A stretch of DNA of 64,000 nucleotides from the IMG/VR virus record IMGVR_UViG_3300028549_001461, positions 1 through 64,000 of that record; one strand, 5' to 3'. Made by a program: the position numbers and the translations under genes. The notes below the pieces were generated by a model that saw only the letters and a list, made by a program, of their open reading frames with translations, was not told the origin of the DNA and made no database searches. The number at the start of each line of letters is the position of its first letter. Position 1 is the stretch's first letter. The DNA is from a virus. Positions 9,616 through 34,866 of the stretch are shown here, piece after piece.

Positions 9616-9646
9616 TTTGTAAAAATAGTTTAAACTGAATTAAACT

Positions 9647-9691
9647 AAAGTACTCGTGGTGTTTTACTACACTGCGAGTACTTTTTTTTTT
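9647..9691 (+). terminator. Intrinsic terminator after the major tail gene
   Basis: AAAGTACTCGTGGTGT / TTTACT / ACACTGCGAGTACTTT stem (2 G-U pairs) ending in a 10-nt T run; a second hairpin TAGTTTAA...TTAAACTA lies just upstream (9626-9647). Confidence 0.85.
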
Positions 9692-9777
9692 GTAAAAATA
9701 TTTTTATGTATTTTAGTCGAATTAACTGACTATATAATAATAGGGTAGTATTAACAGGATATAATAAAGGAGGTAGT

Positions 9778-10023: not shown

Positions 10024-10036
10024 TAGGGAGACGGTT

Positions 10037-10777: not shown

Positions 10778-10791
10778 TAATCTAACATATA

Positions 10792-10822
10792 TAGTACAAA
10801 TACTTAATAACTATTTGTACTA
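10792..10822. promoter_or_regulatory. Intergenic inverted repeat (hairpin)
   Basis: TAGTACAAATA-N9-TATTTGTACTA, perfect 11-bp stem ending 7 nt before the ATG at 10830. Confidence 0.5.
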
Positions 10823-10829
10823 AATTATT

Positions 10830-11882
10830 ATGGAGATATCATACGAAGAAGTAGATTTACTTATTAGAAAGATAGCTCTTGGTCAAGGTTTAATTTATTT
10901 GGATAATAGTTTCTTAAGTATCTATTATCCAAATAATATTTTAAAAATTAAATCTAAACAACTAAGAGATTTTTCTTATAACAGTGCTATAAAGGATGGT
11001 TTGTTGCCCAAAGAACATCTAGAGAAACTAATTTTGTCTAGGGGTATTTTCTCAGAAACTGATGAGGCAACTGTTGAAAGAATCAACTCTAAAATTAGTG
11101 CACAAGAAATACTTCTAGCTAAAACTTTGAAAGTTAGAGCTAATCAAGATAGAATTAAAAAAACTATATCTGAATTACAAAACGAGTTATCCACATTATT
11201 AGTTAAGAAGTACTCAAAACTTTACATGTCGGCAGATAATAAAGCCGACGAAGATATGTATGGTTATATGTGTAGTGAATGTGTTTTTAATGATAAGGGT
11301 GAAAGGTATTGGCCCACACATAAAGACTTTTTAGACTATAGAGATATACCAAGTAAAAACATGATATTTTCTTCTTTTATGGATTTGATGAAAGGTATGG
11401 ACACTACTACCATACGTTATATAGCCAGAAGTAATTTATGGAGAATACGTTATACAACCAGTTTAAAAACATCTGAACCTTTGTTTGGAGTACCTTTAGT
11501 TGATTATACTTCCGATCAGTTAAGTTTAATTTATTGGTCTAATTATTATGAACAGATTTACTCAATGTTGACATCGGATAGACCATCAGAAAGCGTTATT
11601 GAAGATGATGAAGAATTAGATAAGTTTATGACTGATTATTATAAAGAAATGAATAATGAATCTTCTATAAGAAGAGACCAAAAAAATAAAAATAAATTTA
11701 ATTTAGGTTTGTCAGCTTTAGATTCAGACGAGGTTATTATAACACAGTCCAATTCTTTGTATCTGGACATTGATTATGATAAACCAAGAGAAGCTCAGAA
11801 GATAAAAGATAAAACAGATATAAAGAAAAAAGCAATACCTAATAAAGCGGCATATATTTCTAATAAAAAATTAGGAGGGTAA
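10830..11882 (+). CDS. Putative tail assembly chaperone 2 (paralog of the previous gene with a C-terminal extension)
   Basis: 350 aa; aligns by eye with 10037-10777; directly upstream of the TMP. Confidence 0.6.
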   Translation: MEISYEEVDLLIRKIALGQGLIYLDNSFLSIYYPNNILKIKSKQLRDFSYNSAIKDGLLPKEHLEKLILSRGIFSETDEATVERINSKISAQEILLAKTLKVRANQDRIKKTISELQNELSTLLVKKYSKLYMSADNKADEDMYGYMCSECVFNDKGERYWPTHKDFLDYRDIPSKNMIFSSFMDLMKGMDTTTIRYIARSNLWRIRYTTSLKTSEPLFGVPLVDYTSDQLSLIYWSNYYEQIYSMLTSDRPSESVIEDDEELDKFMTDYYKEMNNESSIRRDQKNKNKFNLGLSALDSDEVIITQSNSLYLDIDYDKPREAQKIKDKTDIKKKAIPNKAAYISNKKLGG

Positions 11883-11886: not shown

Positions 11887-14800
11887 TTGGCTGGTATAAG
11901 TGAGCATTTAATTAAGATCCTGGTGAAGTCAGAAAGTGGTTCTGGCCCTGTTCATGAATCTCTAGATGTCAGTAGTATTAGTAATGCTGTAGAAAGTACC
12001 ATAAGTGCTTCTATTAAGTCTATGGAAGCTTCTATTGGTGACACTTTAAGCAAGGCTTTGACTACTGCTACATCAGCTAATTCAAAAAATCCTTCCGATA
12101 ATTCTGGCTTTGTCAGAACATTAACTAAAGAAATAAAAGGCTCTATTGTCGAGATTGTAAATAAATCAGCTTCTGGTGAACTTCCTACATCGTCTGTTGA
12201 TATTAGGAAAGAAGTTACATCTGCTATAGAAAGTATTCTTACAAAGAAGCTTGAAGGTTATTTCAAAGCAAATAACGTCGATAAGACTGAAAGTGCTTCC
12301 AAGAAAGTTATAAAAAGTGTATCTTCAAGTATTTCAAGTGCTGAGCTATCCGGTATAGCTAAAGTAGCTCAAGAACTTTCTGGTATTCTAAAACAACTTT
12401 CTGTTATTACTGGTTTACTGACAAAAAATACCACAGATAGTACAAAAGACAGTACTTCTGTAACATCAACTACTGTAGAAAATATTATAGGTAGTAAAAA
12501 ACTAGTTAAAATACAGGAGAATCAAACAAAGGTAGTATCTAATGTAGGTACTGCTGATTACAAGGGGGCTTCTTCAGAATTATCTAAATTAAATGCAAAA
12601 TATGCCAAACTGCAAAAAGATTTAGAAAGTAATGTAGAATTAACTGTGGTAGTAAACACAGACCAAGCTGAGAAAGATATAGCGGAGTTTACAAAAAACC
12701 AGGCCGCTGTTATAGACGTAGATGTCGACACTACTGGTGCGCAAAGTAAGATAGATAAAGTACTTACTCAAGATCCTCTTTTCCTTAACATAGACTTACA
12801 AAATGAAGATATTACCAGTATTTTTGATAAAATAAGTAATATTCAAAAAAAGGTTAAAGTTCTTGGTTCTAATGGTATAAAGGTAGGTGTTGACACAACT
12901 GCTTTACAAGATTTGCAGAATATGCTTTTGCAGTTGGTACAAGACTATGATTATGTAAAAAGTGCCTTAGGTCAGCAGCAGAAAACATTAAAAACAACTT
13001 TATCTACTAGTCATTCTAAGGAAGCTATTAGCGCGTTACCCCCACAAGAACAACCAGCAGCGGAAAAAGCTGCCAAATTTTATGGTAACAAATATAAACA
13101 AATAGACGCTATACTTTCAGGTTTACATAAAGTAGCAGATAGAAAACCTGAATATTTTAATGATGAACAGCAAAGTAGACCAAGCAGTTCTTTAGCTATT
13201 AATCATTTTAGACATATAGGATCTGTGTCTAATATATCTGAGGCCTTGCAAAACAAAAATGTTACTCCTTGGGTAACAGCCAATGATACACAAAAAACTC
13301 GTAATTCAGCTGTTGAAAGTATTAAGAATATACAAGACACCTCCGGTGTAGTTAATAATATTATACAGCAACTTAACAGCAATCCAGAGACAAAGGCTTT
13401 AATAGTTGCCTTAGAAAAAAATACTAATGCTAATATTGCTGGTACCAGAGCTCAGAATACTCAAGCTAAAACTAATGCTTCCAGTAGTACTACTGCTTTA
13501 AGAGACTATAGATATGACATAAAATATCCTGCTGGTATTATAAAGCCAGGTGAGAAGTACATGCCTGCTGATAAGCCTAATAATGAATATGAACTAAAAG
13601 TATATGATAATTTAGATAGATTGGCCTCATCTTTAGATGAACTTCAGAAATTCATATATGCTAAAGTTAAATTTGGCTTATCAAAGCAAAGTAAGTATGA
13701 ATCTTGGAAAGTTGTAGAAGACCCTGAAGCCAAAGGGCCGAGGAGTGCTTTTAATGTCAGAGGCCGTGATTGGGCCATGGATATAGTAGACGCAAAAAAA
13801 CTAAGTAGTTTGACAGGTAAAGAAGGGTCTCCTAAAGAGCTTTTGAAAAGTTACACTAGCATATTAACTAATAGTATGCTTGAAAAAAAGGGCGTTACTG
13901 TAGATTCACCTTCTGTAAAGAAAGAAATATCTGCATGGCTGACTAATAATATTAAAGCTGTTGGTGGAGTAGAGAATCTGTCAGATGAGGTAAAAAGTTC
14001 TCTAGGAAAAGTTCTTGTAGACTTAAATGGTATAAAAAAAGTAACTAAGACAGAAGTATCCAAAGCTTTAAAAAATACACCAAAAGAAGATCTAGAATCA
14101 ATATATGCAAATACAGTTGGTTTTTCAGATATTCAAAAACAACTTTCAGTTGTTAGACGTACTATAGCTATTCCAGCAGCTAAGCTTACTAATACAGGTA
14201 GCACTGTTCTTGAAACTAAAGGTGGAAGCCAAAGATCTACTTTAAATGTGGCTGCTTATAAAACAGGGCATGAGAGATTTTTTGATACTTACTTAACTAA
14301 AGTTACTGATCGCATTAAAGGTCTACCAGAAGAACAACAAGAAGCAGCCAGACAAAACAAAGCTGGTGAACTACAGCTACTATCAAAAGCAGTAAGAACT
14401 ATAGCGTTTGACACCAACGAAAAACAACCTATTTCACCAAAAATTGATGTTAGTTACGAACAAGCTTCAAGAAAGCTACTTTCAAAAGCTGCTTCTGCTG
14501 ACGTTGACGCGCCTACACTTGCAGAAACTGCTGATATTTATAGAAAAGCACTTGTACCTATAAGTATAGAAAGGCAAAGAATAACCAGAGGTACTGGATA
14601 TGAGTTAGATGCCCCTACAGAATTTTCTGACCTCAGCACTAAAATGAACACTGCTTTAAATTCATCAACATCTATAGATGACTTTATGGATAAGATGAAT
14701 GCCCTTGGTATATCTGCTACAAAGGTTCTACGCTCTTTTGATTCTTTAGACTTTTCAAATATGTATGACACCATCGCACATGCTACCAGTAGTAAAATAG

Positions 14801-17800
14801 ATGATATAGTTAGTAATATTGCTACCTCTACCGGGGCTTTAGGAGAATTTGAAAAGATTATAGGTACCTTAGAAGGAGCTATGCCTATAGCTGGTAATAA
14901 TACTCCTAGAAGGGCTATGCATCAAGGTGATGTTGTATCAACAGTATCTAATTTTTCTAAGGCGTTCTCTGGTCAGCATCTACCAGAAGCGCTAGAAGAC
15001 ATGGAAGCAGAGGATAGTGCTTTTAACACAGACAGTAAACGTAAGAAAGCTTTTATAACAAATCAAAATAGAAGATTTTCACAATTATTTTATGAAAGTC
15101 AAAACCTAGATTTGAAAGAATTTGCTGGTATACCAGAAGTTGAGCCTAGAAAAAGATATTTAAATGTTGGACTACATAAACAATTATCAAGTTTAGGGCT
15201 ACCTGAATCTACAGCTAGTGACTTAGTGGATGATGATAATACTAAAGGTGTACGTGGTAGATCTTTACCTATGTATACTGGTAATCTTAGAGAGATAGCT
15301 CCATTTTCTCTTGAGTATCAACAAACTGGTAGGAATATATCAGGTATTTCTTCAGCTAAAGGTTTTGATGCTGGTTTATTTCCAAAAGTGCATGGTTTGA
15401 AATCAGAAATGCCTAGGTTGAGATCTGAATCTGAAGATAAGGTAATTCAAGCAGGTAGATTTGGTACTTCTGGTGTTGGTTACAACGTATTGGCTGAACT
15501 ACGACACACTGCTGGTACTTTTGAAGATCAAATATTGGTTTCTGGTAAGTTAGCTGACGCAGCTACTACAGCTGTTAAAAAACTTATTAGACCTAAAGCT
15601 GAAGCTGGTAAAGCAACACCACTAAAAGCGCATGTTTTAAAAGATGCTGATATAGAAGACGCAAGTACTAAAATTATGTCTATTATGGGTGTTGAGGAAG
15701 AATACAAAAGGCGCCCAACTAAAGCCTTCATGTCAGATGTTAGAAATGAGGTTATGACTAATAGAGGCTCTTCTGTAGAAGTACAAACAGCTAAACTTGC
15801 TGAATTATTTTTAAATCATTTTGGTAGGAAACTTACGACCAGATATGGTTCTAAGGGTGTTTCTGTCACTCCTACAACTCCGTCTACTTTAGGACAAATA
15901 CTTGCAGAAAATAAAGGTACTTCTGTTAAAGTTCTTCCAGGGGACGAGGGTAAGAAAGCTGCTCTTGGTGTTGCTCTTATGCCAAAATCTATGGGTGAGT
16001 TATCTGCTGATATTTTAAATCAACAACCTAAAAAAATTAAAACTAAAATATCTAAAGATTTAGGTATAAGTGTTGATACCTTAGCTAACGACCTAAAAGA
16101 ATCAGGAAATAAATTTATATTAGATATATTCACAAATGCACAAAGAGGTTTAGTTACAGAAACAGAAGAAACCAAGAATGCGCTTAACTTTGAAAAAGCA
16201 AAGAAGGCTTTTAAACATTTAGGCATTACTCTTGAGAAAGATGCTGTTGGTATAGAAGCTATTAAAACAGCACATACTGGTGATAAAACAGTAGCTAAAG
16301 CTATCGATGTACGTATAAGTTCATATGGCGCCGCCAAGCGAGGTCTTCAGACAGAACCTTTAGAGATGATTACTAATAATTTAGCTGGAAGTTCTGAAAA
16401 AGAAACTGTTATACAAAATACAGTAAAAGACCAGAAAAATAAGTTAATTTCAGGTAAGGGTGCTGCTTTTAGTAAATTTAGTAAGTTGCTTGGTTTCTCA
16501 GACTCAGGTAAGGATGAGAAAGAAATCAGGGAAAGAATCGAAGCTATGTTTAGTGAAAAAGATAAGGAGAAGAAAAGCGTACAAGAAACTATAAATGCTA
16601 TGATAGAGTTAGAAAGTAACTCTAGTTTTTACGTAGATGTTATTGATGAACTAGACAGTAGCAAAAAAAGAAAAAGTTTAGTAGGCGAAAAGTTTTTAAC
16701 AATAGTTGAAGAAGCCACACAAACTGAAGAGTGGTCTAAGGGAGCTATTGAGGCTTTAAGTAAGGGTCTTAAATTAAATATACCTGCTTACTCAGCTTTT
16801 ACCACTATTTTTGGTCAAGATTCTGAATTTATGACCAACCTTAATGATACTTTCACCGATAAACAATCAGAGCATTATGATAATATTTTAACATATTTAA
16901 TGCAAAGTAATGCAGAATACCAGCAAAAATTTTTGGGATCTTTACAAGAAATAGATATTAAAAAATTAAATTCTATAAACAAAGATGCTTCAAAAACTTT
17001 TGAAGAGGGCGTCCCAGGGTCTTTGTTAGGTACAATTTTTGATACTGATAAACTTCCAGGAGCTTATAAAACTAAACTACCCTCTACTGTATCCAAAGAC
17101 GCACCAGGTGAGGATTTTTATATTCCTAGGTCTATTTCAAGAACTACTTTTGCAGACCCTACTGAAGCAGGTGCTTACGGTATAAAAACTAATGCGGGCA
17201 AACTTCAAGAAGTTATAGAAAAGGCTAGATCTTTGGAAGCTTTTTATTCAAAAGACCCAAGTCTTTTACTAGATAGTGATGTTCAAGGTATGTCTCAAAC
17301 TTTTGGTTCCCGCACAAGTAAAGATTTAAGAGAGTTTGTAAACACCACAGGTGTAGAAACAAAATCTCATAAAGTTGACCAAGATATGTTGGACACCGTT
17401 AAAAAAGATCTTCTTGGTATACTTGAAGATTTGGCGGCTGATGGACAAATTTCTAAAGATCCACATTCTCTTGACAAGTTTACTAAAACATTCTACAACA
17501 GGGGGGAAAATTCTTCTGGTAAGTTAACTGGCAACAACAGCAGTCAGATGGATTTACTTAAACATTTACAGACACCAGAAGGTTTTGGTTCTCCAACTGC
17601 TTTAGCAGCTATGAAGAATTTATTGGTAGGTACTGGTAAACCAGGACCAGACCAAAGTGTACTTGGGAGATCTACTGACAAGGCTACAAAATTAAAAATA
17701 ATGGAGCGTACTTCAGCAGCTCTTAATGGTGGTAATACAGACAAAATATTTAATTACGGCGGTTTTGAAAATGCCACTTCTGAGGAACAATATGATTTCC

Positions 17801-26800: not shown

Positions 26801-29800
26801 ATCAAGGTATGACTGGTGATGATTTACCGCCTATTGTTAAGGAGTTTGGTAAGGAAGTTACTATATTTGCTGGAGCAATGAAAGATGAGGGTATATTTAG
26901 CGCTTTAAAGAAAGGCAAAGCTGCCGATAGATTTAGAACATCTTCTGAAGAATTTATGCGTCAGTTCACAGAAGAAACTTTAGACCTTAAAGTTACACCG
27001 AGAACTACAGACGCTGATAGGCAGTCTGAGTATGATTCATCTTATAATGCATTCAGTCAGAAAGCAGCTGATGTTAAATTTGATGCTGAGTGGAAAGCTA
27101 AAGAATTCAAACGTTCTGTAGAAAATCCTAATGCTAATTTACGTGAGAATACTAAAGACTCTGTTAACCAAACAGTTGATGATCTAAAAGCTAAATTAGC
27201 TAGTTTAAAAGATAATATTAAAACCTCTGGTCAAGATGCTATTAGGACCGCTGCTGAAAAAATGGCCAGAGGAGAAGAAGTCAATCTCAAAGACGAGGCT
27301 TCTCAGGTTTATCGTGGCGCCAAAATAAAAACTAAAGAAGCATATGAAGACTTAAAAACACGCGCTAGTAGCGCTGCAGACTTTACTAGTAAAACTACCA
27401 GTTATGCAGGAGAAGCCTCTCTTGGGGCTTTCGATGCTCTTAAAGAAGCCGTAAATAAAAATACAGAGGCAGTTAATGGCAATACTAATGCAACCGACGG
27501 AACTACCGGACATGCCTTAGGCGGATACATACAGAAGTTTGCTGATGGTGGTACAGTCAAACAAATAATGCCTGGTCCAGGTGATAGACAGCCCGCTTTG
27601 TTGACTGCCGGTGAAGAGGTTCTTACAGAAGAACAAAGCAAAGAACTTGCTATGGCCGCTAATTACGCATCAGGTGGTTATATTGCTGATAAATTTAAAA
27701 CTTTTGCTGGTGATACTTTAGAAAAAGCTAGATATCAGGCCGCCCTTTTAAAAGGCGCTGTGTCAGACCCATCTGGTTATATGAAAGCTACGGGATTCGG
27801 GTCTGGCACACTTGATAGTTTTAAAACTTTTGCTGGTGATACTTTAGAAAAAGCTCGATATCAGGCCGCCCTTTTAAAAGGTGCTGTGTCAGACCCATCT
27901 GGTTATATGAAAGCTACGGGATTCGGGTCTGGCACACTTGATAAAATTGGTGAGTTTAAAACTTTTGCTGGTGATACTTTAGAAAAAGCTCGATATCAGG
28001 CCGCCCTTTTAAAAGGTGCTGTGTCAGACCCATCTGGTTATATGAAAGCTACGGGATTCGGGTCTGGCACACTTGATAGTTTTAAAACTTTTGCTGGTGA
28101 TACTTTAGAAAAAGCTCGATATCAGGCCGCCCTTTTAAAAGGTGCTGTGTCAGACCCATCTGGTTATATGAAAGCTACGGGATTCGGGTCTGGCACACTT
28201 GATAAAATTGGTGAGTTTAAAACTTTTGCTGGTGATACTTTAAAAGCAGGTAAAGAAACAATTGGTAAATACGCTGCAAAAGCAGCAAGTAGAATTGGTT
28301 TAAAAAAGATACCAGGATTAGGTACTGTAGCTGCCACTGGCTTTGCCACAGAACGCGCCGCTTCAGGAGATTACATTGGCGCAGGATTAGAACTAGCCTC
28401 TGGTGCAGTAAGTAATATACCAGTTATTGGAACAGCAGCAAGTTTTCTAATCGACGGTGTGTTAATGGGTAAGGACGCTCTAACTAGTAAAATTCCTAAT
28501 AAAGAAAGAATAGCAGAATTACAAAGTACTTTAGGACAGAAACTGAAAAATACTTCTAAATTAAAGTACAGTATGCTCGCAGCAGGCGCTTATGGTTTAT
28601 CTTCACTATTTGGTGATGAAGATACTGAGGAAGATCAAGCTTCTTATGCAGATGGGGGCTATACTACAGGTATGATACGTGGGGCTGGCACTGGTACTTC
28701 TGATTCTATTAGAATGGAAGATGTACCAAGCGGATCTTTTATTATCCCAGCTAAGTACGCCAACAAAGCTAAAGATAAAGTAGAATACTTAAAATTAGCA
28801 AATGGGGGTAAAGGAAGCTCAGACATACGTGTTAGTAATGGTGAATTTTTTATAGACCCTGAAGATGCAGAGAATATAGGCGCTGAAAATCTTAGAAAAA
28901 TGCAATTAGGACAAGAACCTAAATTCAGTGCCGGAGGAGTTGTTAATCGATTTGAATCTGGTGGGCCTGTTCAAGACGAAACTAATTCAACTTCACCTAA
29001 TGATATCTCCATTGACCAAGATAGTATAAATAGATTTGCACAGGCTTCTGCCGCTTCCGCCGCTTTTACTTTTTCTAGATACGCTTCTGAAAAGACAGCT
29101 GATAAAACAAGAAAATCTGATTTAGAAAATATGGCTGAGGGTGAAAATGAAGCCATATATAAAACTATTATGTCTAATGAAGAGGAAGCTCAAAGAGTAT
29201 TAGGAACTTTACAAACTCCTAAAAGCGTAGATAGTGCAGTTGCATCTACTGAAGAATCTTCCAGAGTTTTAGATACAACTAAAGAGTATAAAAAAACACA
29301 GGAAGACGTTAGTAAATTACAGGAAGATTTAACTAAAGAATATGAGAAGCAGAATGAGGAAGTTGAGAAATTAAAAGAAGAGCTACATAAACTTGAGATT
29401 GCTGAAAAGTTTTCTATGCAATTAGAAGCTATGTCTAAGGCAGTGTCGGATAATAGTTTCGCAGAAGAATTTAAGAGATCTTTAAAAATTGGTACAGGAC
29501 CTTTTGAGGGTTTCACTGGTCCTAGAACTGATTTGAATCTTGAAACACGGAATGCACTAGATTTAACTGGTGTAGAATTATTGCAACTGGTTTCAAAACG
29601 TAAGGAAGACCAACATTCTTATTTTAATATAGAAGATAGTATTAAAAACTTCGGTTTAAGAATGGTAAACTTTTTAAATCCTGAAGATACTTATAATAAT
29701 AAATATAGAGGGCAAAATGTTTTAGCTAAGTTTTCAGATTTGGAGGATGAAAAGATAGCCTTAAACACCAATATAAACGCATCTTTACAAAACAGATCTC

Positions 29801-32800
29801 AGGCAACAACACCAGAAGAAGTTGACAATTGGAACGACCATTTAAAAGATCTTGGTAAGCAACTAGAGGATGTAACTAGAAAGCAAGATGGCTATGCAGT
29901 TGCTTTAAGAGAACAAGTTAGGGCAGTAGAAAAAGCTAATAATGTACTAATAGATTACAGAGAGGCTGCTGTTGCCGTCTCTAACATACGAAATACAGCT
30001 GAGTATAGTTTGAATAACCAGGGTTTTGGCGGGAAATTAAAAGGTGCAGTTTCAGATTTGCCGTTAACTCCATTAAATATAGAAGAGTTAAACCCACAAC
30101 AATATTCCTTTATGAAGGCTGGGTCTGGCATGAAAGATTTAATGACACAGCAAAAAGTAAATACTACATTGTATGACCAGGAATTTCAAAAGTATAATCA
30201 ATTAAGTGCAGAACGTGAAAGATTAAAAGTTCAGGCTATGGCCACTTCTGATAGGGGTATTGTTTTTAAAGATAATCAGGTTCAGAATAATGATGGAGCT
30301 TTAAAAAATTTAGAAGAACGTTTGTCAGAATCTAAACTTAAACTTGATTCTATAGGAGCGTCTGTATATCAGGCAAGTGTACGCATTAGTAACTTTTTCG
30401 CAGCTACCGAAGCCGCTAAACAGTTTGACGTAGCTATGTTAAATTTAAAGTCTTCTTTTATATCGGCTTCTATGGGTACACTTGAATTATCCAGTGCCGT
30501 AAATAAAATGTATGGTGGTTCTCATATTGACGCCACACAAAATATAGATGTAGAAGAAAGACAATCAGCTGCTTTGGTAGGTATTAAGTTAGAATCAGGC
30601 AAATCAACACAAGCCAACAGAGAAACTGCCAAACATTTAAATGACTTCTACAATAGTAATGATGCTACTTCCAGCGATAAAGCCATAAAAAATTTCTGGA
30701 ACATGAAACAAAGACGTGTAGATTACGCAGAACATGAGAAATTAACCAATATTACTGATAGTAATAAGGAATATATAAATAATAGTCAGGCTTATGTCAA
30801 GAATATATCACTCGCTGCAGCAAGAGCAGATGATCGTATAAGGGCAAATGCTTACTCTGATATGGATTATGAAGGTAATTCTAAGTCTAGAAACAATGAT
30901 ATCATAGCAAGTGGTTCTTTAAAGGAAAATGGTACTGCTTTAACTGATTTTTTAAAGCAACTTGCTACCAAAGCTAGAGAAACCAATCAGCCCATAAGTG
31001 AATCTGATAAGGGTATTGTACAAGGTATGATTGATAAAACTACTGCTTCGTTAGGTGGGGTTTCTGCAGAATTGTATAATAAAGCTATTGAACTTAATCC
31101 AGTAGTAGATTCTATTGATAAGCAGACAGAAAGACTTATAAGTAGTTTAGTAACACCTGCATCTTTACAAGAGGCTCTAGCATTTTTAAAAGTAGAAAAG
31201 AGTCCAACAGTTATAGATAAAGTGTCTAATATGGCTTCTTCTGCTTTAAATTTTAGAGCTTTTGAAGACCGTAATCCAGTTGTTAGTATATACGATAAAG
31301 AAGCTGCGAGAAAGGCAAAGGCCGATGAATTAAAATATATGCCTAATAATTTCGCTACTGGAGGGCAGATAGGTACTTTAATATCTGGTCCAGGTACTGA
31401 AACTTCTGATAGCATACCAATGGCCGTTCCAGCAGGATCTTTTATAATTAAAGCCAAGCATGCCCAAAATGCAAAAAATTATATAAATAATTTTGCTAAT
31501 GGTGGACAAGTTCCTATAAATGTAAGTAATGGTGAATTACTACTGACTCCAGAAGAAGTCGCTAATATAGGTGGTGTAAAAAAAGCAGAAGAACTAAATA
31601 AAGGTATTTTTGATAAACTTAGAGAAGTTGTTTTAAGTAAAAAAACTGAAGCTTTGTTTTTAGGTGCAGAAACTTCTAAAAATATAGCTGACAGAGAGGG
31701 AGCTTTAAAAGATGCCATCAGCTTCGCATCAGGCGGTGCAGTAGATTCTATGAATGCTTCCTGGACAGAAGAAGATTATAACAAGCATGGCTTTGCTGAT
31801 GAGAAAGATTATAATCAACAAATGATGGGTCTTGAAAAACCAATGCTAGATCCTATAGACCTTATTGGTGGCTTCGGAGCATTACCTTTATTAAAAGCCG
31901 CAACAAGTAGATTAGGTACTAAGTTATTCAGTTCTAGTGTAGCACCTTTAAGTAATGAAATGGGTTCTATAGCTTTACCAACTATGTCTAAAACAGCTTC
32001 TACAGGTAGTTATTTAAAGGAAGCTGAAAAAATAATGGGTATAAATCTCAATGTTTCTAAATATACAAAGGAAATCACAGGTAATAAGGAATTACTACAG
32101 GAAGTGCTTTCTAAAGGACAAGCTATATATGGAGAAGGTTCTTCTCTTAATCAAATAGTAAGTCGTTCTGGGCCTATTGGTATTAAAAATTTAGTAGAAA
32201 GTATAAGCAAAAATCGTGGTTTTGCCGATGGTGGTTTAGTTGATAAAAGAAATAAGTTACTTGCTAATATAGCTGCTTCTAATGATGATACCTCAAAGCA
32301 TGTTTTTGAAAGTATGTCTGAAATATTGGATAAAAATCCAGAAGTTTTGGATTACTTGAGTGAGGTTAATATTTCTTCAAGTGCTAGTGTTAAGAAACCT
32401 TCAGGAACAGCTGGTTTTGCAGGAAATTATCCTGGATCTCCAAAAACAGACCTTTGGTATAATAAAGATATTATTTCAGATGTTTTAAGTGGTACTAATA
32501 AATTTAAATATCCAAAAGATATGGGGGGATCACCAAAAGAAATAATAAATAGTATTTTATCTCACGAAGTAGGTCATGCTGCTCTTAATGTTATGAAGGT
32601 CAATCAACCCGAACTTGCTAAAAAATGGATAGCAGAATTATCTAAAGTACCTGCAAATAGTTTAACAGACTATAGTAAAAAATACAGAGATAATAGTTTA
32701 AAAACTATACCAGGTAGAGATGAACATGAAACATTTGCTGAATTATTTAGATTACATAATGCTACAAATAGCAAAGTAGCTTTAGCCGATATGGATCCTA

Positions 32801-34866
32801 AAGAAGCTATTAAACTTTTTACTAATAAAGAAGGGGTTGTTAATAAAGATACTAATACTACTACACCTGTAAATAAAGTTATACTATCTCGTGGCGCAGA
32901 TTTAGCAAATTTATCAAGTTCCAGGTCATACCCACTAAATACTGAAAGTCGTATGGTACCAAAAGTTTCTATGGTTAGTGAATCTTTTGAGAGTCTTTTA
33001 GATAATGTGTCTACAGAAGCAAAAGCTAAAAAAAGTAACTTGTCCGATATAAATAAATTTAAAAAAGACCAAGCAAAAGTACAAATGCTTCAAACAACAG
33101 ATGATGAAGGTAGTTTTATAAAGCAAAATATTTTAGATACTTTGAAAAACACAATTGAAAGTAACAGACAAAGTATTGATATACATAATAGTAATATGGA
33201 TGTACCCACAAATAAGTTAATAGCCAAACAGTTTAATGCTACACATATAGGTAAAGCATTCACATCTGCTGGTTATGGCTCAAACGGCGGTGGAGCTGGT
33301 CTATCTATTATGAATGGTACCGGTAAAGGCAATGCTTTAGTAAGTAGTGCTACTGTAGCTAAAAATTTACCAAATTCATTTTCACAATTAAAAGATAGAT
33401 TATCATATGTTAGTAAAGATACACCAAGTAGAGCTGAGTATCTTAAAGGCTTATCCGAAGAAGAAAGAAATTCTTTCATGTCTTCATTAGATGTGAATAA
33501 AGCTACTTTAAACGCAATTGAAGAATCTGGTGGCTTTGAATACGCTATTCGTAGCCAAGAAGGTAACTTTTTGATGGAGAAGGCCAGACAAAACTTTATG
33601 CGGCATACTGGCGAGTTTTATTTTTATGATATTGGAGATAAAGCTAAAGAAAAATTTAATAAAAATGAAAATAGATACTTAAGAACTTACACGAGAGAAC
33701 AAGAAGTCGATATCTTTGCAAAGCAGTTAAAAAATGCTCAAACTGATAAAGAGCTTAATAAGAATTACTATGGGAGTGTACCTGGACAACCACATTTAAG
33801 TGAAGAAACTATACTTTTATGGGAACGTTTTAAAAAAGAACATCAAATTAAAGGTGAAAAAAGAACTTTAAACACAAACAATAATAGTAATAGAGTTTTC
33901 CATAACGGTGGTATAGCTAATAATACTGGTACTTACTTTCTGGAGCAAGGTGAAAGAGTTTTGCCTAAAAACTTTAAAGATGGGGGACAAGCCCTTTCCG
34001 ATGTTTCTAGTGCATCTATGTCAAGGCAGTCATACTCAGTTGAATTAGAAGGTTTAGATACTTTTGAAGAATTAGTTGACACATTTGAAGAAAGTATTTC
34101 TAAGCTGTCCTCTATTAAAATAGAAGGTTTAGATAAATTAACTAATATTAAAATAGAAAATATAGATAAATTAACTGATATCAAGATTGAAGGTATAAGT
34201 GAACTACGAGATATTAGTATAAAAGATGTTGATAAATTAACAGACATACATATAGAAGGTGTAGATAAACTTACTAATATTAAAATAGAAGGTTTGTCAG
34301 AATTAAGAAATATAAAGATAGAAGATGTTGATAAACTAACTTCTATAAAAATAGAAGGTATAGATCAACTTCGAGATTTAAGAATAGAAGGTATTGAGCA
34401 AATTCGTGATATAAAAGTAGAGGGTTTATCAGAACTTAAAAATATAAAAATAGAGGGTTCAGAGAATCTTAGAGATATAAAAATAATTGGTATAGAAGAA
34501 CTTAAAGATGTGAGTATAAATAGTAACAATCAAAGTTCTGTTGGTGCAGACACTAAGGATATGTTAACATCTGCTTTAAAGGATTTTGATTCACGAGTTT
34601 TGAATTTAGAAGAATCTTCTAGTAAGCAAATTGATATAATAAAAACTACAGTTACTGACCTAGTTAATGACTTACCTACTATATCAATGGTTCAAAAATC
34701 CGATATAGATAATTTAAAGAAAGAAATTACAGATACTAACTCTGAGATATCCAATCTTGCTTCTAGTATAAAAAGTTTAAATCAGGAATTATCTATAAAG
34801 GTAAAAGAAATAAATGATAAACAGAACACAGCTATGACACATATATATTCTATAAAGAGAAATTAA
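11887..34866 (+). CDS. Giant tape measure protein fused to a two-barrel RNA polymerase (beta+beta'-like) and an HExxH metallopeptidase
   Basis: 7,659-aa ORF with TTG start and AGGAGG SD; TMP position in the tail operon; TP901-type TMP core; ordered RNAP motifs; HEVGH motif. Confidence 0.9.
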   Translation: MAGISEHLIKILVKSESGSGPVHESLDVSSISNAVESTISASIKSMEASIGDTLSKALTTATSANSKNPSDNSGFVRTLTKEIKGSIVEIVNKSASGELPTSSVDIRKEVTSAIESILTKKLEGYFKANNVDKTESASKKVIKSVSSSISSAELSGIAKVAQELSGILKQLSVITGLLTKNTTDSTKDSTSVTSTTVENIIGSKKLVKIQENQTKVVSNVGTADYKGASSELSKLNAKYAKLQKDLESNVELTVVVNTDQAEKDIAEFTKNQAAVIDVDVDTTGAQSKIDKVLTQDPLFLNIDLQNEDITSIFDKISNIQKKVKVLGSNGIKVGVDTTALQDLQNMLLQLVQDYDYVKSALGQQQKTLKTTLSTSHSKEAISALPPQEQPAAEKAAKFYGNKYKQIDAILSGLHKVADRKPEYFNDEQQSRPSSSLAINHFRHIGSVSNISEALQNKNVTPWVTANDTQKTRNSAVESIKNIQDTSGVVNNIIQQLNSNPETKALIVALEKNTNANIAGTRAQNTQAKTNASSSTTALRDYRYDIKYPAGIIKPGEKYMPADKPNNEYELKVYDNLDRLASSLDELQKFIYAKVKFGLSKQSKYESWKVVEDPEAKGPRSAFNVRGRDWAMDIVDAKKLSSLTGKEGSPKELLKSYTSILTNSMLEKKGVTVDSPSVKKEISAWLTNNIKAVGGVENLSDEVKSSLGKVLVDLNGIKKVTKTEVSKALKNTPKEDLESIYANTVGFSDIQKQLSVVRRTIAIPAAKLTNTGSTVLETKGGSQRSTLNVAAYKTGHERFFDTYLTKVTDRIKGLPEEQQEAARQNKAGELQLLSKAVRTIAFDTNEKQPISPKIDVSYEQASRKLLSKAASADVDAPTLAETADIYRKALVPISIERQRITRGTGYELDAPTEFSDLSTKMNTALNSSTSIDDFMDKMNALGISATKVLRSFDSLDFSNMYDTIAHATSSKIDDIVSNIATSTGALGEFEKIIGTLEGAMPIAGNNTPRRAMHQGDVVSTVSNFSKAFSGQHLPEALEDMEAEDSAFNTDSKRKKAFITNQNRRFSQLFYESQNLDLKEFAGIPEVEPRKRYLNVGLHKQLSSLGLPESTASDLVDDDNTKGVRGRSLPMYTGNLREIAPFSLEYQQTGRNISGISSAKGFDAGLFPKVHGLKSEMPRLRSESEDKVIQAGRFGTSGVGYNVLAELRHTAGTFEDQILVSGKLADAATTAVKKLIRPKAEAGKATPLKAHVLKDADIEDASTKIMSIMGVEEEYKRRPTKAFMSDVRNEVMTNRGSSVEVQTAKLAELFLNHFGRKLTTRYGSKGVSVTPTTPSTLGQILAENKGTSVKVLPGDEGKKAALGVALMPKSMGELSADILNQQPKKIKTKISKDLGISVDTLANDLKESGNKFILDIFTNAQRGLVTETEETKNALNFEKAKKAFKHLGITLEKDAVGIEAIKTAHTGDKTVAKAIDVRISSYGAAKRGLQTEPLEMITNNLAGSSEKETVIQNTVKDQKNKLISGKGAAFSKFSKLLGFSDSGKDEKEIRERIEAMFSEKDKEKKSVQETINAMIELESNSSFYVDVIDELDSSKKRKSLVGEKFLTIVEEATQTEEWSKGAIEALSKGLKLNIPAYSAFTTIFGQDSEFMTNLNDTFTDKQSEHYDNILTYLMQSNAEYQQKFLGSLQEIDIKKLNSINKDASKTFEEGVPGSLLGTIFDTDKLPGAYKTKLPSTVSKDAPGEDFYIPRSISRTTFADPTEAGAYGIKTNAGKLQEVIEKARSLEAFYSKDPSLLLDSDVQGMSQTFGSRTSKDLREFVNTTGVETKSHKVDQDMLDTVKKDLLGILEDLAADGQISKDPHSLDKFTKTFYNRGENSSGKLTGNNSSQMDLLKHLQTPEGFGSPTALAAMKNLLVGTGKPGPDQSVLGRSTDKATKLKIMERTSAALNGGNTDKIFNYGGFENATSEEQYDFQVSKRQQDLEDAKANYNQSLKRTMVGKQGSVARTYFTRNLPAVLAKAVNATVDKTEELTAFSEALSAIEGVDLSSELGKISTLTSEHASNVEKYRNQGMPVLKQHEIGMSEKMAEKLKVNFTKKYDEESGMPLGKLQKETNGSLKDLLSYGDTLKETANKYTDPKLKEEIFNYVDTELAPYVESVRFPFTGTSSVKPYKAKLTSTEGNIGDEAFIVPGAPEMDMGAFEEVYNSIQDKIKKLTGEREEARSTGADDTADALTITIDKLNDALSAVLPKYVAHAQKLDYDGDQLEIHTAKTSGARGEIYKHFKMLTEDNKTTSGKFSDYYAYDAKQPSQGDLPLSFMAKAFTKKFDSSKGYSFMDKPFTTEDLSYLSTKEKIGILASKEQELNDVSSRDAVENVMRSLFEKVGETFTGLPAGVVDLDKAAEEAASALEGLSLKSAKTGALAKGYLKEELHGSKEDTAVNAQLFKINTGSDVESMTRLMRAYEQRRGFGSSGGDLGLYERTKSGKLNNDFVVRERNTQLNEFFRFAVQKGMDVKHAGEQPIAGELVTGVTTGKVGLDSLLHKLEKKESYKDLKKFSDINEESLRSTFGRFSTTDLKKQVKQLNPAHYNAGNVDKMPREELINSLVGHLGFKGFLKELQLTIEEQAAQGLMTLSPKIRNIDQGKHILAKGYAKGESIDMSRLVTNPHDPLYKYRTASAKVGENFDEKFQGALASTKTPSSKKGAYAELTGTFDTLNKDGIDASSFIAIKKLLESNELKSSNTSLKPIKGLLGNMENRLGLAPISDRGRVALLQSPKHIESLLDIPEEASDKDRAKIEKSNRRLDEIAIAKARLDRIAEVANYNKNVLTTPVDISIGDDSNKELVEKAGLGSAKESASDTEKLFEVPPPIQAPTAQQNFTEPSEQVFEPPTNITRTKVNAQTTENDFESLMGPEPPMPGSTSGGGVQPPEPPMPGIPSTSAAPSGSAPISVFLEGMNSSLVFPVKLLGQLLSSAAISNSTGTFAKDDSSFVGDVVSDVNKFKDTEEQRKQAYVKSANILEPVQGYGPSTELKNVELLREASKSLYEARGMDFEKEAEKLSGEAQGFIKEAKVSGNVNVMEFLEYTKNAGIEFKNDPNQGMSGDKVATAWRLYKDSVIEFLINKAKSAEADYESMKGVGGNSEALARSKFAASVKAVQAKISGDAGKRSDIYTSNKVWAYPDIAKAAGVYESPLDIQRKTSRDLGDIEDPDSDLLTNTFNNITKDLSGKNRDTMVAPADKARTALKDLTEMDSTTIDLMKNGKLLERLGPEIAEAWNFEKAAERLTRLRSALELFKQFNVSDSPLSVEKKNLEETIKFLKDAENKLVKVDMSRKKQPGGTGVWGDTGVVQVPKWVDPSMQSDLHKRNIAKVREYYGKSEESGGAKVGERYAYDAKIFDDSGKAISNQRTLFHKFGESVDSAGNKIGLFKASQEDLSASLAGVNRGFMGAIERAIKWGAAATIIYGGAAQIKEAVQTLAEIEVEMAKLRMVMPKQGTDFEGLQNSAVGIAKKYGTPTVGVLESMTLYAQQGLDSSAVLDRTDTSMMAVNVTTLKAKEATEALTAAMKVFKTEGESSMRFLDSWSEVEALHAITANDMAEAIKKSAAAASAAGITFDQLNGIVAAIGSVTRQSGKEVGTSLRFIMRRLSAEKGPEALAKINIPTVTGEGELRSGYDVLGALAEKWKDLSSAQKMSIAQAIGGTRQYNSLLVLMENWQEAIDGVHHSLNSQGSASRRNAEMMQTYSKQVEQTKAAFLELQLSIGKVAFPAAKMGLQGLKAMAETINAIPSSFKAAGVAAVALFTYLSQGAKILDAISNFFSGGTPIIGGLITSIKDELKTASFELIGAGQTDESTRGLNTLTSGQVKDHNQGKSLRDFESSLGKAAYLLVSAGKGFNDAVGGTLKGTGKAGQSVGQGMVRAGSWFSSIVSSLGGGKYGKGEDVTYKDLAGGVASKYTKSEGIKGAFALGGLKGLGKIASSFVGVATEVGGLGSAAAGIFVDEFSKKLGAGGDIFKSWAKDNAGLIKSVAPMLLTLGLLTPAIKALGTEFLNTTRSSQDFEDSMYELRIADENVLKQTRDTSKSYKDLQSKLMDVQKSSDPEVSANQKHLGSYEHPLTALAGVQSNALKLNESIANSNINMIAGYDELGNAILRTSDNYQVLLSTFEKATVRDLASRDIAVAAKHIEALTKTDGPENWKKELKDLTKEIPVVGGMISDQIKLSPAKSLELTTGKLNNLLAKKNASPMSTVYDDDIKDLQGKLAKVKISFNQTYSDFKRNLTNIPTTGLAKEEVASLLGSKELQAGYQLMVDIEPKYNVKGTKGKVKWEDVLGAEVLKRIFPDSNLIDATKELSTANIESAGIAKRQNKVLSGDLVTFGDEAADKFNMSGNQAIVKLKETSDGIFEWVATYFNSKTLKIEERTFDSGMQDLVESILPTKAIQQDLSERIEALGSFVTGASAGLIGIAKKGFKADFNLGERFFSDITTSTVIQGDKGFDPMSGFGESKFQKGWSDDFKKYYSEPMTEYKNSVEEIQKLSLEGLDKSGVEMSTELYESIVKLQQVLMNNQVVLQYRAVFADLTKTMDANSRAIKENIAVEKTRSSLSKETSGLLKGKDVSLANMDLGKYDKNALTAQERLLISKPEFSKKAGRLKELEITKSGLSEQIYAADKSKVALDSIKNLSSGFGTSLSKEDLSKYTETVAKTGDLGVAELKIDTSKTAENTAMTVDKLEEILDNLHDTKAIQEMEHKSLDQIASIRNDAEKSGDSETVTKANKALDDLSRQLVDKLGLKGAAKEVDKGLFGAGAFNSKELVQRAFGGMDFKTLSSEMRTGMEGKDLEKFDKSTEDILKLQDENKAKAKESTLFNSKNIAGASTAFGVYQAFNSNFSNKKIEAYEKQIADLKARENEVGFIDYDPQMAALTSAKAEEEKKARMYGTMRFAAGGASGSMLLARNLGMSEDNIKRMGAGGAALGVYGAAKLNQGMTGDDLPPIVKEFGKEVTIFAGAMKDEGIFSALKKGKAADRFRTSSEEFMRQFTEETLDLKVTPRTTDADRQSEYDSSYNAFSQKAADVKFDAEWKAKEFKRSVENPNANLRENTKDSVNQTVDDLKAKLASLKDNIKTSGQDAIRTAAEKMARGEEVNLKDEASQVYRGAKIKTKEAYEDLKTRASSAADFTSKTTSYAGEASLGAFDALKEAVNKNTEAVNGNTNATDGTTGHALGGYIQKFADGGTVKQIMPGPGDRQPALLTAGEEVLTEEQSKELAMAANYASGGYIADKFKTFAGDTLEKARYQAALLKGAVSDPSGYMKATGFGSGTLDSFKTFAGDTLEKARYQAALLKGAVSDPSGYMKATGFGSGTLDKIGEFKTFAGDTLEKARYQAALLKGAVSDPSGYMKATGFGSGTLDSFKTFAGDTLEKARYQAALLKGAVSDPSGYMKATGFGSGTLDKIGEFKTFAGDTLKAGKETIGKYAAKAASRIGLKKIPGLGTVAATGFATERAASGDYIGAGLELASGAVSNIPVIGTAASFLIDGVLMGKDALTSKIPNKERIAELQSTLGQKLKNTSKLKYSMLAAGAYGLSSLFGDEDTEEDQASYADGGYTTGMIRGAGTGTSDSIRMEDVPSGSFIIPAKYANKAKDKVEYLKLANGGKGSSDIRVSNGEFFIDPEDAENIGAENLRKMQLGQEPKFSAGGVVNRFESGGPVQDETNSTSPNDISIDQDSINRFAQASAASAAFTFSRYASEKTADKTRKSDLENMAEGENEAIYKTIMSNEEEAQRVLGTLQTPKSVDSAVASTEESSRVLDTTKEYKKTQEDVSKLQEDLTKEYEKQNEEVEKLKEELHKLEIAEKFSMQLEAMSKAVSDNSFAEEFKRSLKIGTGPFEGFTGPRTDLNLETRNALDLTGVELLQLVSKRKEDQHSYFNIEDSIKNFGLRMVNFLNPEDTYNNKYRGQNVLAKFSDLEDEKIALNTNINASLQNRSQATTPEEVDNWNDHLKDLGKQLEDVTRKQDGYAVALREQVRAVEKANNVLIDYREAAVAVSNIRNTAEYSLNNQGFGGKLKGAVSDLPLTPLNIEELNPQQYSFMKAGSGMKDLMTQQKVNTTLYDQEFQKYNQLSAERERLKVQAMATSDRGIVFKDNQVQNNDGALKNLEERLSESKLKLDSIGASVYQASVRISNFFAATEAAKQFDVAMLNLKSSFISASMGTLELSSAVNKMYGGSHIDATQNIDVEERQSAALVGIKLESGKSTQANRETAKHLNDFYNSNDATSSDKAIKNFWNMKQRRVDYAEHEKLTNITDSNKEYINNSQAYVKNISLAAARADDRIRANAYSDMDYEGNSKSRNNDIIASGSLKENGTALTDFLKQLATKARETNQPISESDKGIVQGMIDKTTASLGGVSAELYNKAIELNPVVDSIDKQTERLISSLVTPASLQEALAFLKVEKSPTVIDKVSNMASSALNFRAFEDRNPVVSIYDKEAARKAKADELKYMPNNFATGGQIGTLISGPGTETSDSIPMAVPAGSFIIKAKHAQNAKNYINNFANGGQVPINVSNGELLLTPEEVANIGGVKKAEELNKGIFDKLREVVLSKKTEALFLGAETSKNIADREGALKDAISFASGGAVDSMNASWTEEDYNKHGFADEKDYNQQMMGLEKPMLDPIDLIGGFGALPLLKAATSRLGTKLFSSSVAPLSNEMGSIALPTMSKTASTGSYLKEAEKIMGINLNVSKYTKEITGNKELLQEVLSKGQAIYGEGSSLNQIVSRSGPIGIKNLVESISKNRGFADGGLVDKRNKLLANIAASNDDTSKHVFESMSEILDKNPEVLDYLSEVNISSSASVKKPSGTAGFAGNYPGSPKTDLWYNKDIISDVLSGTNKFKYPKDMGGSPKEIINSILSHEVGHAALNVMKVNQPELAKKWIAELSKVPANSLTDYSKKYRDNSLKTIPGRDEHETFAELFRLHNATNSKVALADMDPKEAIKLFTNKEGVVNKDTNTTTPVNKVILSRGADLANLSSSRSYPLNTESRMVPKVSMVSESFESLLDNVSTEAKAKKSNLSDINKFKKDQAKVQMLQTTDDEGSFIKQNILDTLKNTIESNRQSIDIHNSNMDVPTNKLIAKQFNATHIGKAFTSAGYGSNGGGAGLSIMNGTGKGNALVSSATVAKNLPNSFSQLKDRLSYVSKDTPSRAEYLKGLSEEERNSFMSSLDVNKATLNAIEESGGFEYAIRSQEGNFLMEKARQNFMRHTGEFYFYDIGDKAKEKFNKNENRYLRTYTREQEVDIFAKQLKNAQTDKELNKNYYGSVPGQPHLSEETILLWERFKKEHQIKGEKRTLNTNNNSNRVFHNGGIANNTGTYFLEQGERVLPKNFKDGGQALSDVSSASMSRQSYSVELEGLDTFEELVDTFEESISKLSSIKIEGLDKLTNIKIENIDKLTDIKIEGISELRDISIKDVDKLTDIHIEGVDKLTNIKIEGLSELRNIKIEDVDKLTSIKIEGIDQLRDLRIEGIEQIRDIKVEGLSELKNIKIEGSENLRDIKIIGIEELKDVSINSNNQSSVGADTKDMLTSALKDFDSRVLNLEESSSKQIDIIKTTVTDLVNDLPTISMVQKSDIDNLKKEITDTNSEISNLASSIKSLNQELSIKVKEINDKQNTAMTHIYSIKRN
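14900..16830 (+). other. RNAP beta-like region within the TMP
   Basis: IAPFSLEYQQTGRN (15295-15336), GYNVLAELRHTAGTFEDQILVS (15478-15543), GRKLTTRYGSKGV (15823-15861) and IDVRISSYGAAKR (16303-16341), in the order found in cellular beta. Confidence 0.85.
17100..19430 (+). other. RNAP beta'-like region within the TMP, including the catalytic DxDGD
   Basis: SLKRTMVGKQG (17854-17886), PVLKQHEIGMSEKMAEKL (18097-18150), VRFP (R at 18355), KLDYDGDQLEIH (first D at 18655), QKGMDVKH (19402-19425). Confidence 0.9.
22200..23400 (+). other. TP901-family tape measure core domain
   Basis: AIERAIKWGAAATIIYG...LQNSAVGIAKKYG...ATEALTAAMK...RQSGKEVGTSLR...LSSAQKMSIAQAIGG followed by hydrophobic helices. Confidence 0.85.
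27694..28242 (+). repeat. In-frame tandem repeat: units of 126/135/126/135 bp plus a 27-bp partial
   Basis: Units start at 27694, 27820, 27955, 28081 and 28216; near-identical DNA encoding FKTFAGDTLEKARYQAALLKGAVSDPSGYMKATGFGSGTLD(S/KIGE). Confidence 0.95.
32300..32800 (+). other. Zincin-like metallopeptidase domain within the TMP
   Basis: ILSHEVGHAAL (H at 32563), then LTDYS and HETFAELF (E at 32728). Confidence 0.7.
34114..34509 (+). repeat. Twelve degenerate 33-bp (11-aa) repeats near the TMP C-terminus
   Basis: Consensus IKIEG(L/I/V)(D/S)(K/E)L(T/R)(N/D), counted in the translation. Confidence 0.9.

Follow-up and report, generated by a model that had tools for sequence, protein, structure and literature searches.

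The window analysed here is the initial 64 kb (64,000 nucleotides) of the linear phage record IMGVR_UViG_3300028549_001461 of IMG/VR (161,221 bp, G+C content 32.7%, CheckV completeness 61%), the DNA of which comes from a microbial mat sample. The gene of interest, at 11887-34866 on the + strand, is one uninterrupted open reading frame (ORF) of 7,659 codons, as an earlier reading of this sequence (hereafter the original prediction) had reported. Its TTG start is located 8 nt 3' of an AGGAGG sequence that overlaps the stop codon of the preceding gene. The encoded protein joins a tape measure protein (TMP), the ruler of tail length, to a module that we assign to the RNA polymerases (RNAPs). The conservation profile obtained with 79 full-length homologues splits the protein into five parts, in the order variable (aa 1-550), conserved (~550-2700), variable linker (~2700-3050), conserved (~3050-5000) and variable C-terminal third. 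The main features are the following.

11887-34866, + strand: whole gene, TMP with embedded RNAP, 7,659 aa, TTG start
11887-13536, + strand: aa 1-550, N-terminal region, Ser/Lys/Thr-rich and poorly kept across the family (conservation and composition)
13537-15258, + strand: aa 551-1124, family-conserved segment without assigned fold (conservation)
15259-16854, + strand: aa 1125-1656, beta (Rpb2)-like half (structure matches to Rpb2 and bacterial beta; hhalign to a compact RNAP family, E 1.8e-19)
16912-17919, + strand: aa 1676-2011, beta-prime N-terminal or clamp-like region (inside the Rpb1 21-516 and Mycobacterium tuberculosis beta-prime 14-580 alignments; archaeal clamp 3qqc, Z 8.1)
17920-18690, + strand: aa 2012-2268, beta-prime-type double-psi beta-barrel (DPBB; structural superposition with designed DPBB 7dww)
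18691-20001, + strand: aa 2269-2705, rest of the beta-prime-like half (model of aa 1960-2705 against E. coli beta-prime 281-1355)
20002-21036, + strand: aa 2706-3050, Pro/Ser-rich, non-conserved linker from polymerase to ruler (conservation and composition)
21037-26886, + strand: aa 3051-5000, tape measure core, matched by PF10145, TIGR01760 and PHROG TMP families and containing a single hydrophobic segment (aa 4016-4038)
26887-34866, + strand: aa 5001-7659, C-terminal part, variable across the family (weak PHROG 'peptidase' matches, HEVGH, two repeat arrays)

The region of aa ~3050-5000 is a genuine TP901-type tape measure core. Pfam family PF10145 matches aa 3504-3695 (E 3e-26, 92.9 bits for a cut-off of 33.2), NCBIfam family TIGR01760 matches aa 3459-3799 (E 1.6e-42, 145.8 bits, cut-off 28.8), and eight PHROG TMP families match the core, the best with an E-value of 1e-65. 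These matches confirm the TMP core announced for this ORF in the original prediction.

The polymerase-TMP fusion is real, because about 80 homologues share the layout and an independent contig spans the junction without an indel. The same layout is seen in the 79 full-length homologues, which stem from many samples and amount to ~80 independent assemblies. A wastewater contig of 5,104 nt from another study covers window positions 17500-22503, i.e. sequence ahead of the catalytic DYDGD motif (described below), the linker and the ruler, with 93 substitutions and zero indels, and in a second study positions 19702-21181 are bridged as well. In two other assemblies of this phage the contig ends within the gene, at a tandem repeat (27687-28242), as could be expected if assembly or gene calling had merged a polymerase gene with a tape measure gene. 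However, this break lies downstream of both modules, the independent contig crosses the polymerase-ruler junction free of indels, and the layout recurs in the 79 homologues from many samples. The probability of an artefact is in our view negligible. Because two assemblies break at the repeat, its copy number is uncertain, either through misassembly or through true variation.

Word-indexed and exhaustive HMMER searches place the protein in a family of ~50 clusters at 90% identity, with 109 representatives at 50% identity. Nearly all members are PF10145 proteins of 7,000-8,000 aa or fragments of these, on metagenomic contigs of up to 308 kb. The family is present at 46 IMG/VR loci and on two metagenome-assembled genome contigs, labelled Fermentibacteria and Gammaproteobacteria. 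No match to the fused module was found among 50,697 GenBank phage records. Near-identical sequence, with at least half of the sampled words, occurs in wastewater runs of two studies (P2 and P3), and smaller shares occur in runs of further studies. No RNA dataset is listed among the runs that contain the sequence; those wastewater runs that bear an RNA-Seq label are marked as probably DNA and are uninformative on expression. Four homologues (P0044, P0046, P0047 and P0051) present extra precomputed domains, either an RNase T-type exonuclease (PF00929) or helix-hairpin-helix DNA-binding modules plus a SLOG domain, so the payload of the giant protein varies.

Fold and catalytic residues of the polymerase module

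Within the polymerase module, the following elements could be located.

15520-15531, + strand: aa 1212-1215, FEDQ, counterpart of beta E813/D814 (E1213, D1214 and Q1215 invariant)
15823-15861, + strand: aa 1313-1325, beta-barrel hairpin, in which the invariant K1315 and K1323 correspond to E. coli beta K1065/K1073
15874-16296, + strand: aa ~1330-1470, insertion specific to the lineage and for the most part helical, within the beta barrel region (predicted local distance difference test, pLDDT, 88-93 over aa 1360-1469; missing in the compact family)
18352-18363, + strand: aa 2156-2159, VRFP, counterpart of beta-prime NRAP with R425 (R2157 and P2159 invariant)
18469-18621, + strand: aa 2195-2245, helical hairpin of ~50 residues inserted in the barrel, just N-terminal of the catalytic loop (pLDDT ~96)
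18655-18669, + strand: aa 2257-2261, DYDGD, Mg-binding Asp triad D2257/D2259/D2261 (invariant; loop preceding a barrel strand)
19210-19278, + strand: aa 2442-2464, candidate bridge helix (long helix; K2443 and G2447 invariant, E2451 and R2455 at least 90% conserved)
19402-19431, + strand: aa 2506-2515, candidate trigger loop, Q-x2-M-x3-H-x-G at a helix-loop-helix (near-invariant)

Template-free AlphaFold2 models were built on family alignments for two fragments. Model 1 (aa 1120-2319) has a pLDDT of 77.8 and a predicted TM-score (pTM) of 0.61, with a weak stretch at aa ~1219-1359 (pLDDT 40-65), and model 2 (aa 1960-2720) has a pLDDT of 86.4 and a pTM of 0.85. For both models, the 50 best Foldseek matches are nearly all RNAP beta or beta-prime chains, those of phiKZ and AR9 included, with weak E-values of 0.015-2. 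A structural aligner independent of Foldseek was run against 48,161 PDB representatives. Ranks 1-9 for model 1 are second-largest subunits, namely those of Pol I, African swine fever virus (ASFV), Xanthomonas (beta), plastid (beta), Pol IV, AR9, Pol III, phiKZ and vaccinia, which align ~220-270 residues on aa 1125-1656 with Z 12.5-15.9. The next matches are largest subunits aligned from their N-termini (Rpb1 21-516 and M. tuberculosis beta-prime 14-580) on aa 1676-2305, with Z 9.6-10.9. Ranks 1-11 for model 2 are all largest subunits (Z 9.9-12.0). The beta-like half superposes on Rpb2 485-1154 and bacterial beta ~380-1010 with Z 12.5-16.9 and a root-mean-square deviation (rmsd) of 3-4 A over ~260 residues; when the Foldseek matches were re-aligned, aa 1960-2705 superposed on E. 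coli beta-prime 281-1355 with Z 11.5-12.1.

The designed DPBB 7dww fits aa 2012-2268 with all its 86 residues at 1.9 A (Z 7.6-10.5), and designed and natural DPBBs together give an rmsd of 1.9-2.3 A over 85-90 residues. DYDGD is the loop into the barrel strand formed by aa 2262-2266 in model 2. Two single-chain enzymes, QDE-1 (Z 10.7, 263 residues) and gp96 of Thermus phage P23-45 (8H2M; Z 8.7, 222 residues), align over both halves of model 1, which indicates that the barrels are placed relative to each other as they are in genuine polymerases. Neither phi14:2 gp66 nor PolD is among the 50 best matches of the wide structure searches, an absence that carries no evidential weight. The original prediction had asked for AlphaFold models and a Foldseek search, and these bear it out: in a single chain, a beta-like half precedes a beta-prime-like half, and a DPBB (aa 2012-2268) terminates in DYDGD. 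On the models, a beta-type DPBB that provides the two conserved lysines is present (Z 12.5-16.9, K1315/K1323 invariant and aligned by hhalign, but with a local pLDDT of 45-60), and so is a beta-prime-type DPBB with a D-x-D-x-D loop, its DYDGD being invariant in 77 homologues. We conclude that aa ~1125-2705 almost certainly have an RNAP fold.

The largest-subunit alignments that bear the clamp (Z 9.6-10.9) include aa 1676-2011, and an archaeal clamp construct matches there with Z 8.1. These Z values are moderate, and they suggest that a clamp-like N-terminal beta-prime region is retained in the fused module, of which aa 1800-1960 are weakly conserved within the family. Judging by its position, the segment of aa 551-1124 could be the equivalent of the beta lobe/protrusion; a feature search of the ESM Atlas with aa 560-1130 gave no lead (best score 0.79). 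Two differences in spacing were also noted. R2157 and D2257 are 100 residues apart, versus 35 in E. coli beta-prime, with the helical hairpin of aa 2195-2245 between them, and the flap is short, with ~100 aa from the ED motif to the first Lys versus ~250 in E. coli.

The nine RNAP motifs cited in the original prediction are all found at the residues indicated there (aa 1137-1150, 1198-1219, 1313-1325, 1473-1485, 1990-2000, 2071-2088, 2156-2159, 2257-2261 and 2506-2513), and the spacings of 8 from Lys to Lys and 11 from Asp to Arg are by arithmetic equal to those of E. coli beta. Conservation was evaluated in alignments of 48-77 homologues with 25-70% identity. On the beta side K1315, K1323, G1324, E1213, D1214, Q1215 and R1485 are invariant, and on the beta-prime side D2257, D2259, G2260, D2261, H2266, R2157 and P2159. 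In the candidate trigger loop, K2512 and G2515 are invariant and Q2506, K2507, G2508, D2510, V2511, H2513 and A2514 are at least 90% conserved. D1474 predominates in the family, yet at less than 90%. DYDGD is the sole D-x-D-G/A-D motif among all ORFs of the 161-kb record. Since the catalytic residues are invariant across divergent homologues and this motif is unique in the record, the agreement is more than chance. The large lineage-specific insertions in both barrels, together with scores under the Pfam thresholds, could mean that the module is the inactive remnant of a polymerase, of use to the tail for its structure or for DNA binding only. However, all residues needed for catalysis are invariant down to ~25% identity, whereas their loss would be expected if the domain were dead; we regard a dead relic as very improbable.

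Direct sequence links to known RNAPs are faint. There is no match for aa 1-3300 in Pfam, PHROG or NCBIfam, nor for the polymerase region in the PDB when searched with phmmer. The family profiles give in the PDB a marginal match to Rpb1/Rpc1 at the Asp triad alone (E 1.1-1.9). PF00623 is nevertheless the commonest Pfam match in the family (56 of 77 homologues, best E 3e-5). When aligned by hhalign with single E. coli RpoB and RpoC sequences, the expected motif pairs come out on top at non-significant levels (E 0.16-0.23 and 0.0058, respectively), and K1315/K1323 align to beta K1065/K1073 both in the alignment to the single RpoB and through the compact family presented below. By the gathering cut-offs, the fused module falls outside the PF00623 and PF00562 families, though it probably functions as their members do.

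A compact companion polymerase and the P23-45 precedent

Five large related records were searched with PF00623. In three of these (G001, G003 and G004) a second match was found, in a separate ORF of 1,085-1,180 aa. G001 is a 228-kb record whose TMP is 66% identical to the present one, and G004 (268 kb) is 100% complete. The genes concerned, each with a PF00623 match, are located as follows.

L059:5335-8592 (G001): compact polymerase gene
L060:6212-9520 (G004): compact polymerase gene
G003:C1:113087-116473: compact polymerase gene

This compact enzyme consists of a PF00562-like then a PF00623-like segment, i.e. in the order beta, beta-prime, and contains a GLDFDGD loop. Scores in its family reach 28 bits for PF00623 and a sub-threshold 16.5-18 bits for PF00562 (cut-off 23.4). 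At 90% identity this family falls into at least 361 clusters, and the contigs that carry it measure up to 327 kb; like the fused module, it has no match among the 50,697 GenBank phage records. Its profile (A5) matches RNAPs alone in the PDB, the best being a bacterial beta (E 1.4e-4) at the barrel with the two lysines. The fused module aligns with A5 by hhalign motif by motif over 459 columns (Prob 99.2%, E 1.8e-19), including the PF-x-x-x-x-x-x-R-N, ED, K-x7-K hairpin, I-D-V and YVP segments, and the beta-prime barrel aligns with an E-value of 2.5e-5. The compact family is therefore an intermediate that ties the beta half to known RNAPs by sequence. The insertions of aa ~1330-1470 (~140 residues) and aa 2195-2245 are specific to the fused form and missing in A5; the second, a hairpin, is also missing in E. 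coli beta-prime. Thus, the compact enzymes are homologous to the fused module, have the same motif set and occur in the same genomes in three of the five large relatives, but they are free-standing, half the size, without both insertions and nearer to the Pfam RNAP models. Because of this homology, the compact ~1,100-aa polymerase is likely the non-virion partner of the fused enzyme. The next gene after the compact polymerase in G001 (L059:9439-11877) encodes a ResIII/DEAD helicase split by a LAGLIDADG domain, in an intein-like manner.

The precedent named in the original prediction, gp96 of P23-45, is the right one, and the present protein is a different, larger and more cell-like version. 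P23-45 belongs to a small group of Thermus phages (Oshimavirus; also P74-26, G20c and TSP4; PDB 8H2M and 8H2N). The first ~1,050 residues of gp96 (5,002 aa) form an active, flat and clampless two-barrel polymerase with DFDGD at 779 (Chaban et al., PMC10770324). This protein is present in virions and transcribes the pre-early genes, among them the gene for gp64, another polymerase, which is not a virion component and is regarded as an ancient paralogue (PMC10770324). It also carries a metallopeptidase and membrane segments, and its flat clampless shape was linked by the authors to passage through the tail (PMC10770324). The present protein resembles gp96 in that a single giant ORF encodes a two-barrel polymerase and, C-terminal to it, a ruler, in its D-aromatic-D-G-D catalytic loop and in a metallopeptidase-like part elsewhere in the chain; moreover, relatives of the present phage encode a second, separate and homologous polymerase, to be compared with gp64. 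In contrast, the module is ~2,150 aa here and begins ~550 aa into the chain, whereas that of gp96 is ~1,050 aa at the extreme N-terminus. The predicted structure matches cellular beta and beta-prime better (Z 10-16, together ~540 residues) than it matches gp96 (222 residues, Z 8.7), it apparently includes a clamp-like region whereas gp96 is flat and clampless, and the host and habitat are mesophilic (microbial mat, wastewater) instead of thermophilic.

The fused-family profile has no hhalign match in gp96 1-1200. When the whole proteins are compared, the best blastp E-value is 0.74 and profile searches give no match, either for the polymerase part or for the ruler part. As far as sequence can tell, the fused giant family is unrelated to the gp96 lineage. 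Both could still descend from one ancient TMP-polymerase fusion that diverged past recognition, given the same order of polymerase ahead of ruler, the separate homologous second polymerase found in relatives as for gp64, and the alignment of gp96 across both barrels (Z 8.7). Against a common origin stand the lack of sequence similarity in either part, the cellular-type subunits, which match about twice as many residues as gp96 and with higher Z, and the clamp-like region that gp96 does not have; in addition, the compact family matches gp96 no better than it matches Rpb1 or AR9 beta-prime. We therefore consider a shared fusion unlikely. Rather, and tentatively, the fusion may have arisen independently: the compact polymerase of this lineage would have been duplicated and one copy inserted in the ruler, giving a convergent relay of two polymerases, one injected and then one free, in abundant uncultured environmental phages of ~230-270 kb. 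An enzyme that keeps its clamp would then pass through a very long tail, or sit above it, in an unfolded or otherwise unusual state. Reckoned at about 1.5 A per residue, a tail measured by the whole chain would be about 1.1 um long, and one measured by the core alone about 0.3 um.

The best structural matches for both halves are the multisubunit RNAPs (bacterial beta/beta-prime, Rpb2/Rpb1, ASFV and vaccinia) and the split phiKZ/AR9 enzymes. Multisubunit RNAPs share with the fused module the K-x7-K hairpin, ED, R-x-P, the Asp triad and trigger-loop-like Q/M/H residues. They differ from it in that the module is one chain, with no counterparts of alpha, omega or sigma seen, is fused to a virion protein, and has a short flap, the insertions of aa ~1330-1470 and 2195-2245 and scores under the Pfam thresholds. 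Enzymes of the phi14:2 gp66 (crAss-like), QDE-1 and YonO type are likewise single chains with two double-psi barrels, and gp66 is a virion enzyme too. However, their structural match is lower than that of the multisubunit enzymes, and none of them is fused to a TMP. The mReC phages of Weinheimer and Aylward (PMC7481178) were also considered and rejected as the same system, as the criterion for their selection was that beta and beta-prime be encoded separately, by genes of 800 aa or more with NADxDGD. In the literature searched on TMP-polymerase fusions we found no paper beyond the P23-45 work and none describing the present family.

Probable delivery of the polymerase through the tail

Considering how the protein is built and folded, that its catalytic residues are conserved and that it is linked to a ruler throughout the lineage, we infer that the gene product is probably both a tail-length ruler and a single-chain, two-barrel, cellular-type DNA-dependent RNAP, active as an early transcriptase delivered through the tail. 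The location of a single-chain RNAP core within the TMP means that, together with its DNA, the phage probably injects a transcription enzyme of its own. As part of the TMP, the polymerase would be assembled into the tail, and at infection it would leave the tail before or together with the DNA, as suggested by TMP biology and by analogy with P23-45. Inside the cell it could then transcribe the first phage genes without the host RNAP, as gp96 does. In the relatives, these first genes probably include that of the compact ~1,100-aa RNAP, which would take over as the non-virion enzyme. The Pro-rich linker of aa 2706-3050 could tether the enzyme to the ruler or be a site of cleavage.

Several points weigh against this proposal. 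PF00623 hits the genome at a single site (aa 2249-2279), with 13.8 bits for a cut-off of 25.3, and PF00562 does not match the fused module. The K1315/K1323 hairpin is poorly modelled (pLDDT 45-60). The compact polymerase gene was not found in the 161-kb record, nor was a counterpart of the 16 kb that surround it in G001; both absences are compatible with a record that is 61% complete. When repeated promoter-like motifs were sought in the 161-kb record by exact k-mer matching, the tandem repeat inside the gene was all that was returned, and no early promoter motif emerged. Finally, a folded polymerase of ~240 kDa with a clamp-like region is hard to fit in the lumen of a tail.

TMPs of other phages, such as lambda gpH and T5 pb2, are proteolytically processed. 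Given the non-conserved Pro/Ser-rich linker between the modules and the peptidase-like stretches in the C-terminal part, an active polymerase might similarly be cleaved from the ruler during virion maturation and be packaged or free, or it might prime DNA synthesis or transcribe during DNA entry alone. However, in P23-45 it is the fused form that is detected in virions and was studied. Moreover, the best structural matches are DNA-dependent transcriptases and not primases or PolD, and ~80 divergent homologues retain the fusion, an argument that the linkage itself is important. Such a cleaved or otherwise employed enzyme seems quite unlikely to us, and tail delivery of the fused transcriptase is the interpretation that we retain.

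The experimental demonstration of a TMP-fused virion RNAP is limited to one small group of Thermus phages (P23-45, PMC10770324). If tail delivery holds for the present family, it would be a recurrent strategy, with ~110 clusters (50% identity) of the fused form and at least 361 clusters (90% identity) of the companion enzyme. The module would also give structural and evolutionary studies of RNAP origins a cellular beta/beta-prime core reduced to a minimal single chain, and it would sharpen the physical question of how a ~240-kDa enzyme is stored and translocated in a tail. For annotation, giant tape measure genes may conceal enzymes that are missed by Pfam and PHROG.

C-terminal part and surrounding genes

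The protein's C-terminal part contains two repeat arrays.

27687-28242, + strand: aa 5270-5485, tandem repeat of five near-perfect copies of a 42/45-aa unit (sequence repeat)
34113-34496, + strand: about twelve 11-residue repeats with a 33-nt period, near the C-terminus, weakly resembling leucine-rich repeats (PF23952, 26.3 bits, just under cut-off)

A Gly/Thr/Ser-rich segment with weak matches to 'peptidase' PHROG families is present in two copies, at aa ~5400-5530 and ~6500. A zincin-type HEVGH motif is found at aa 6893-6897 (nt 32563-32577), in the region that varies within the family, and a search of the ESM Atlas with aa 6760-7010 gave sub-threshold metallopeptidase leads alone (score 0.86). 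The original prediction had considered a protease domain as an addition with respect to P23-45; this is not borne out, since gp96 itself has a metallopeptidase and the HEVGH region is variable with weak zincin leads.

The eleven ORFs that flank the gene (window 26-11882, 34868-36907 and 36907-37506) have no Pfam match at E <= 0.01, and ten of them (36907-37506 left out) have no PHROG match at E <= 0.001; even with E-values of up to 1, neither Pfam nor PHROG provides a name for the neighbouring genes. Further downstream, giant genes at 42206-49406 and 51791-64000 (626-2,269 aa) encode Big_1, Laminin_G_3 and galactose-binding-like domains and, judged by these domains, are probably fibres or baseplate parts. 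For the TMP position in the operon, as proposed in the original prediction, the TMP domain itself and the lectin/Ig-like tail-fibre-type genes downstream are the grounds, as the neighbours match no Pfam or PHROG family.

Other genes of the 161-kb record encode DnaK, a family-A DNA polymerase and ribonucleotide reductase. The Hsp70/DnaK is full-length and its gene lies outside the window (G000:C1:114356-116212, L003:11356-13212; PF00012, E 6e-244). That it might assist the refolding of a tail-delivered polymerase is pure speculation. Also outside the window, a gene for a short, 344-aa adenylosuccinate-synthetase-like protein (G000:C1:99690-101723, L002:15690-17723; PF00709, E 6e-26) adjoins a radical SAM gene.

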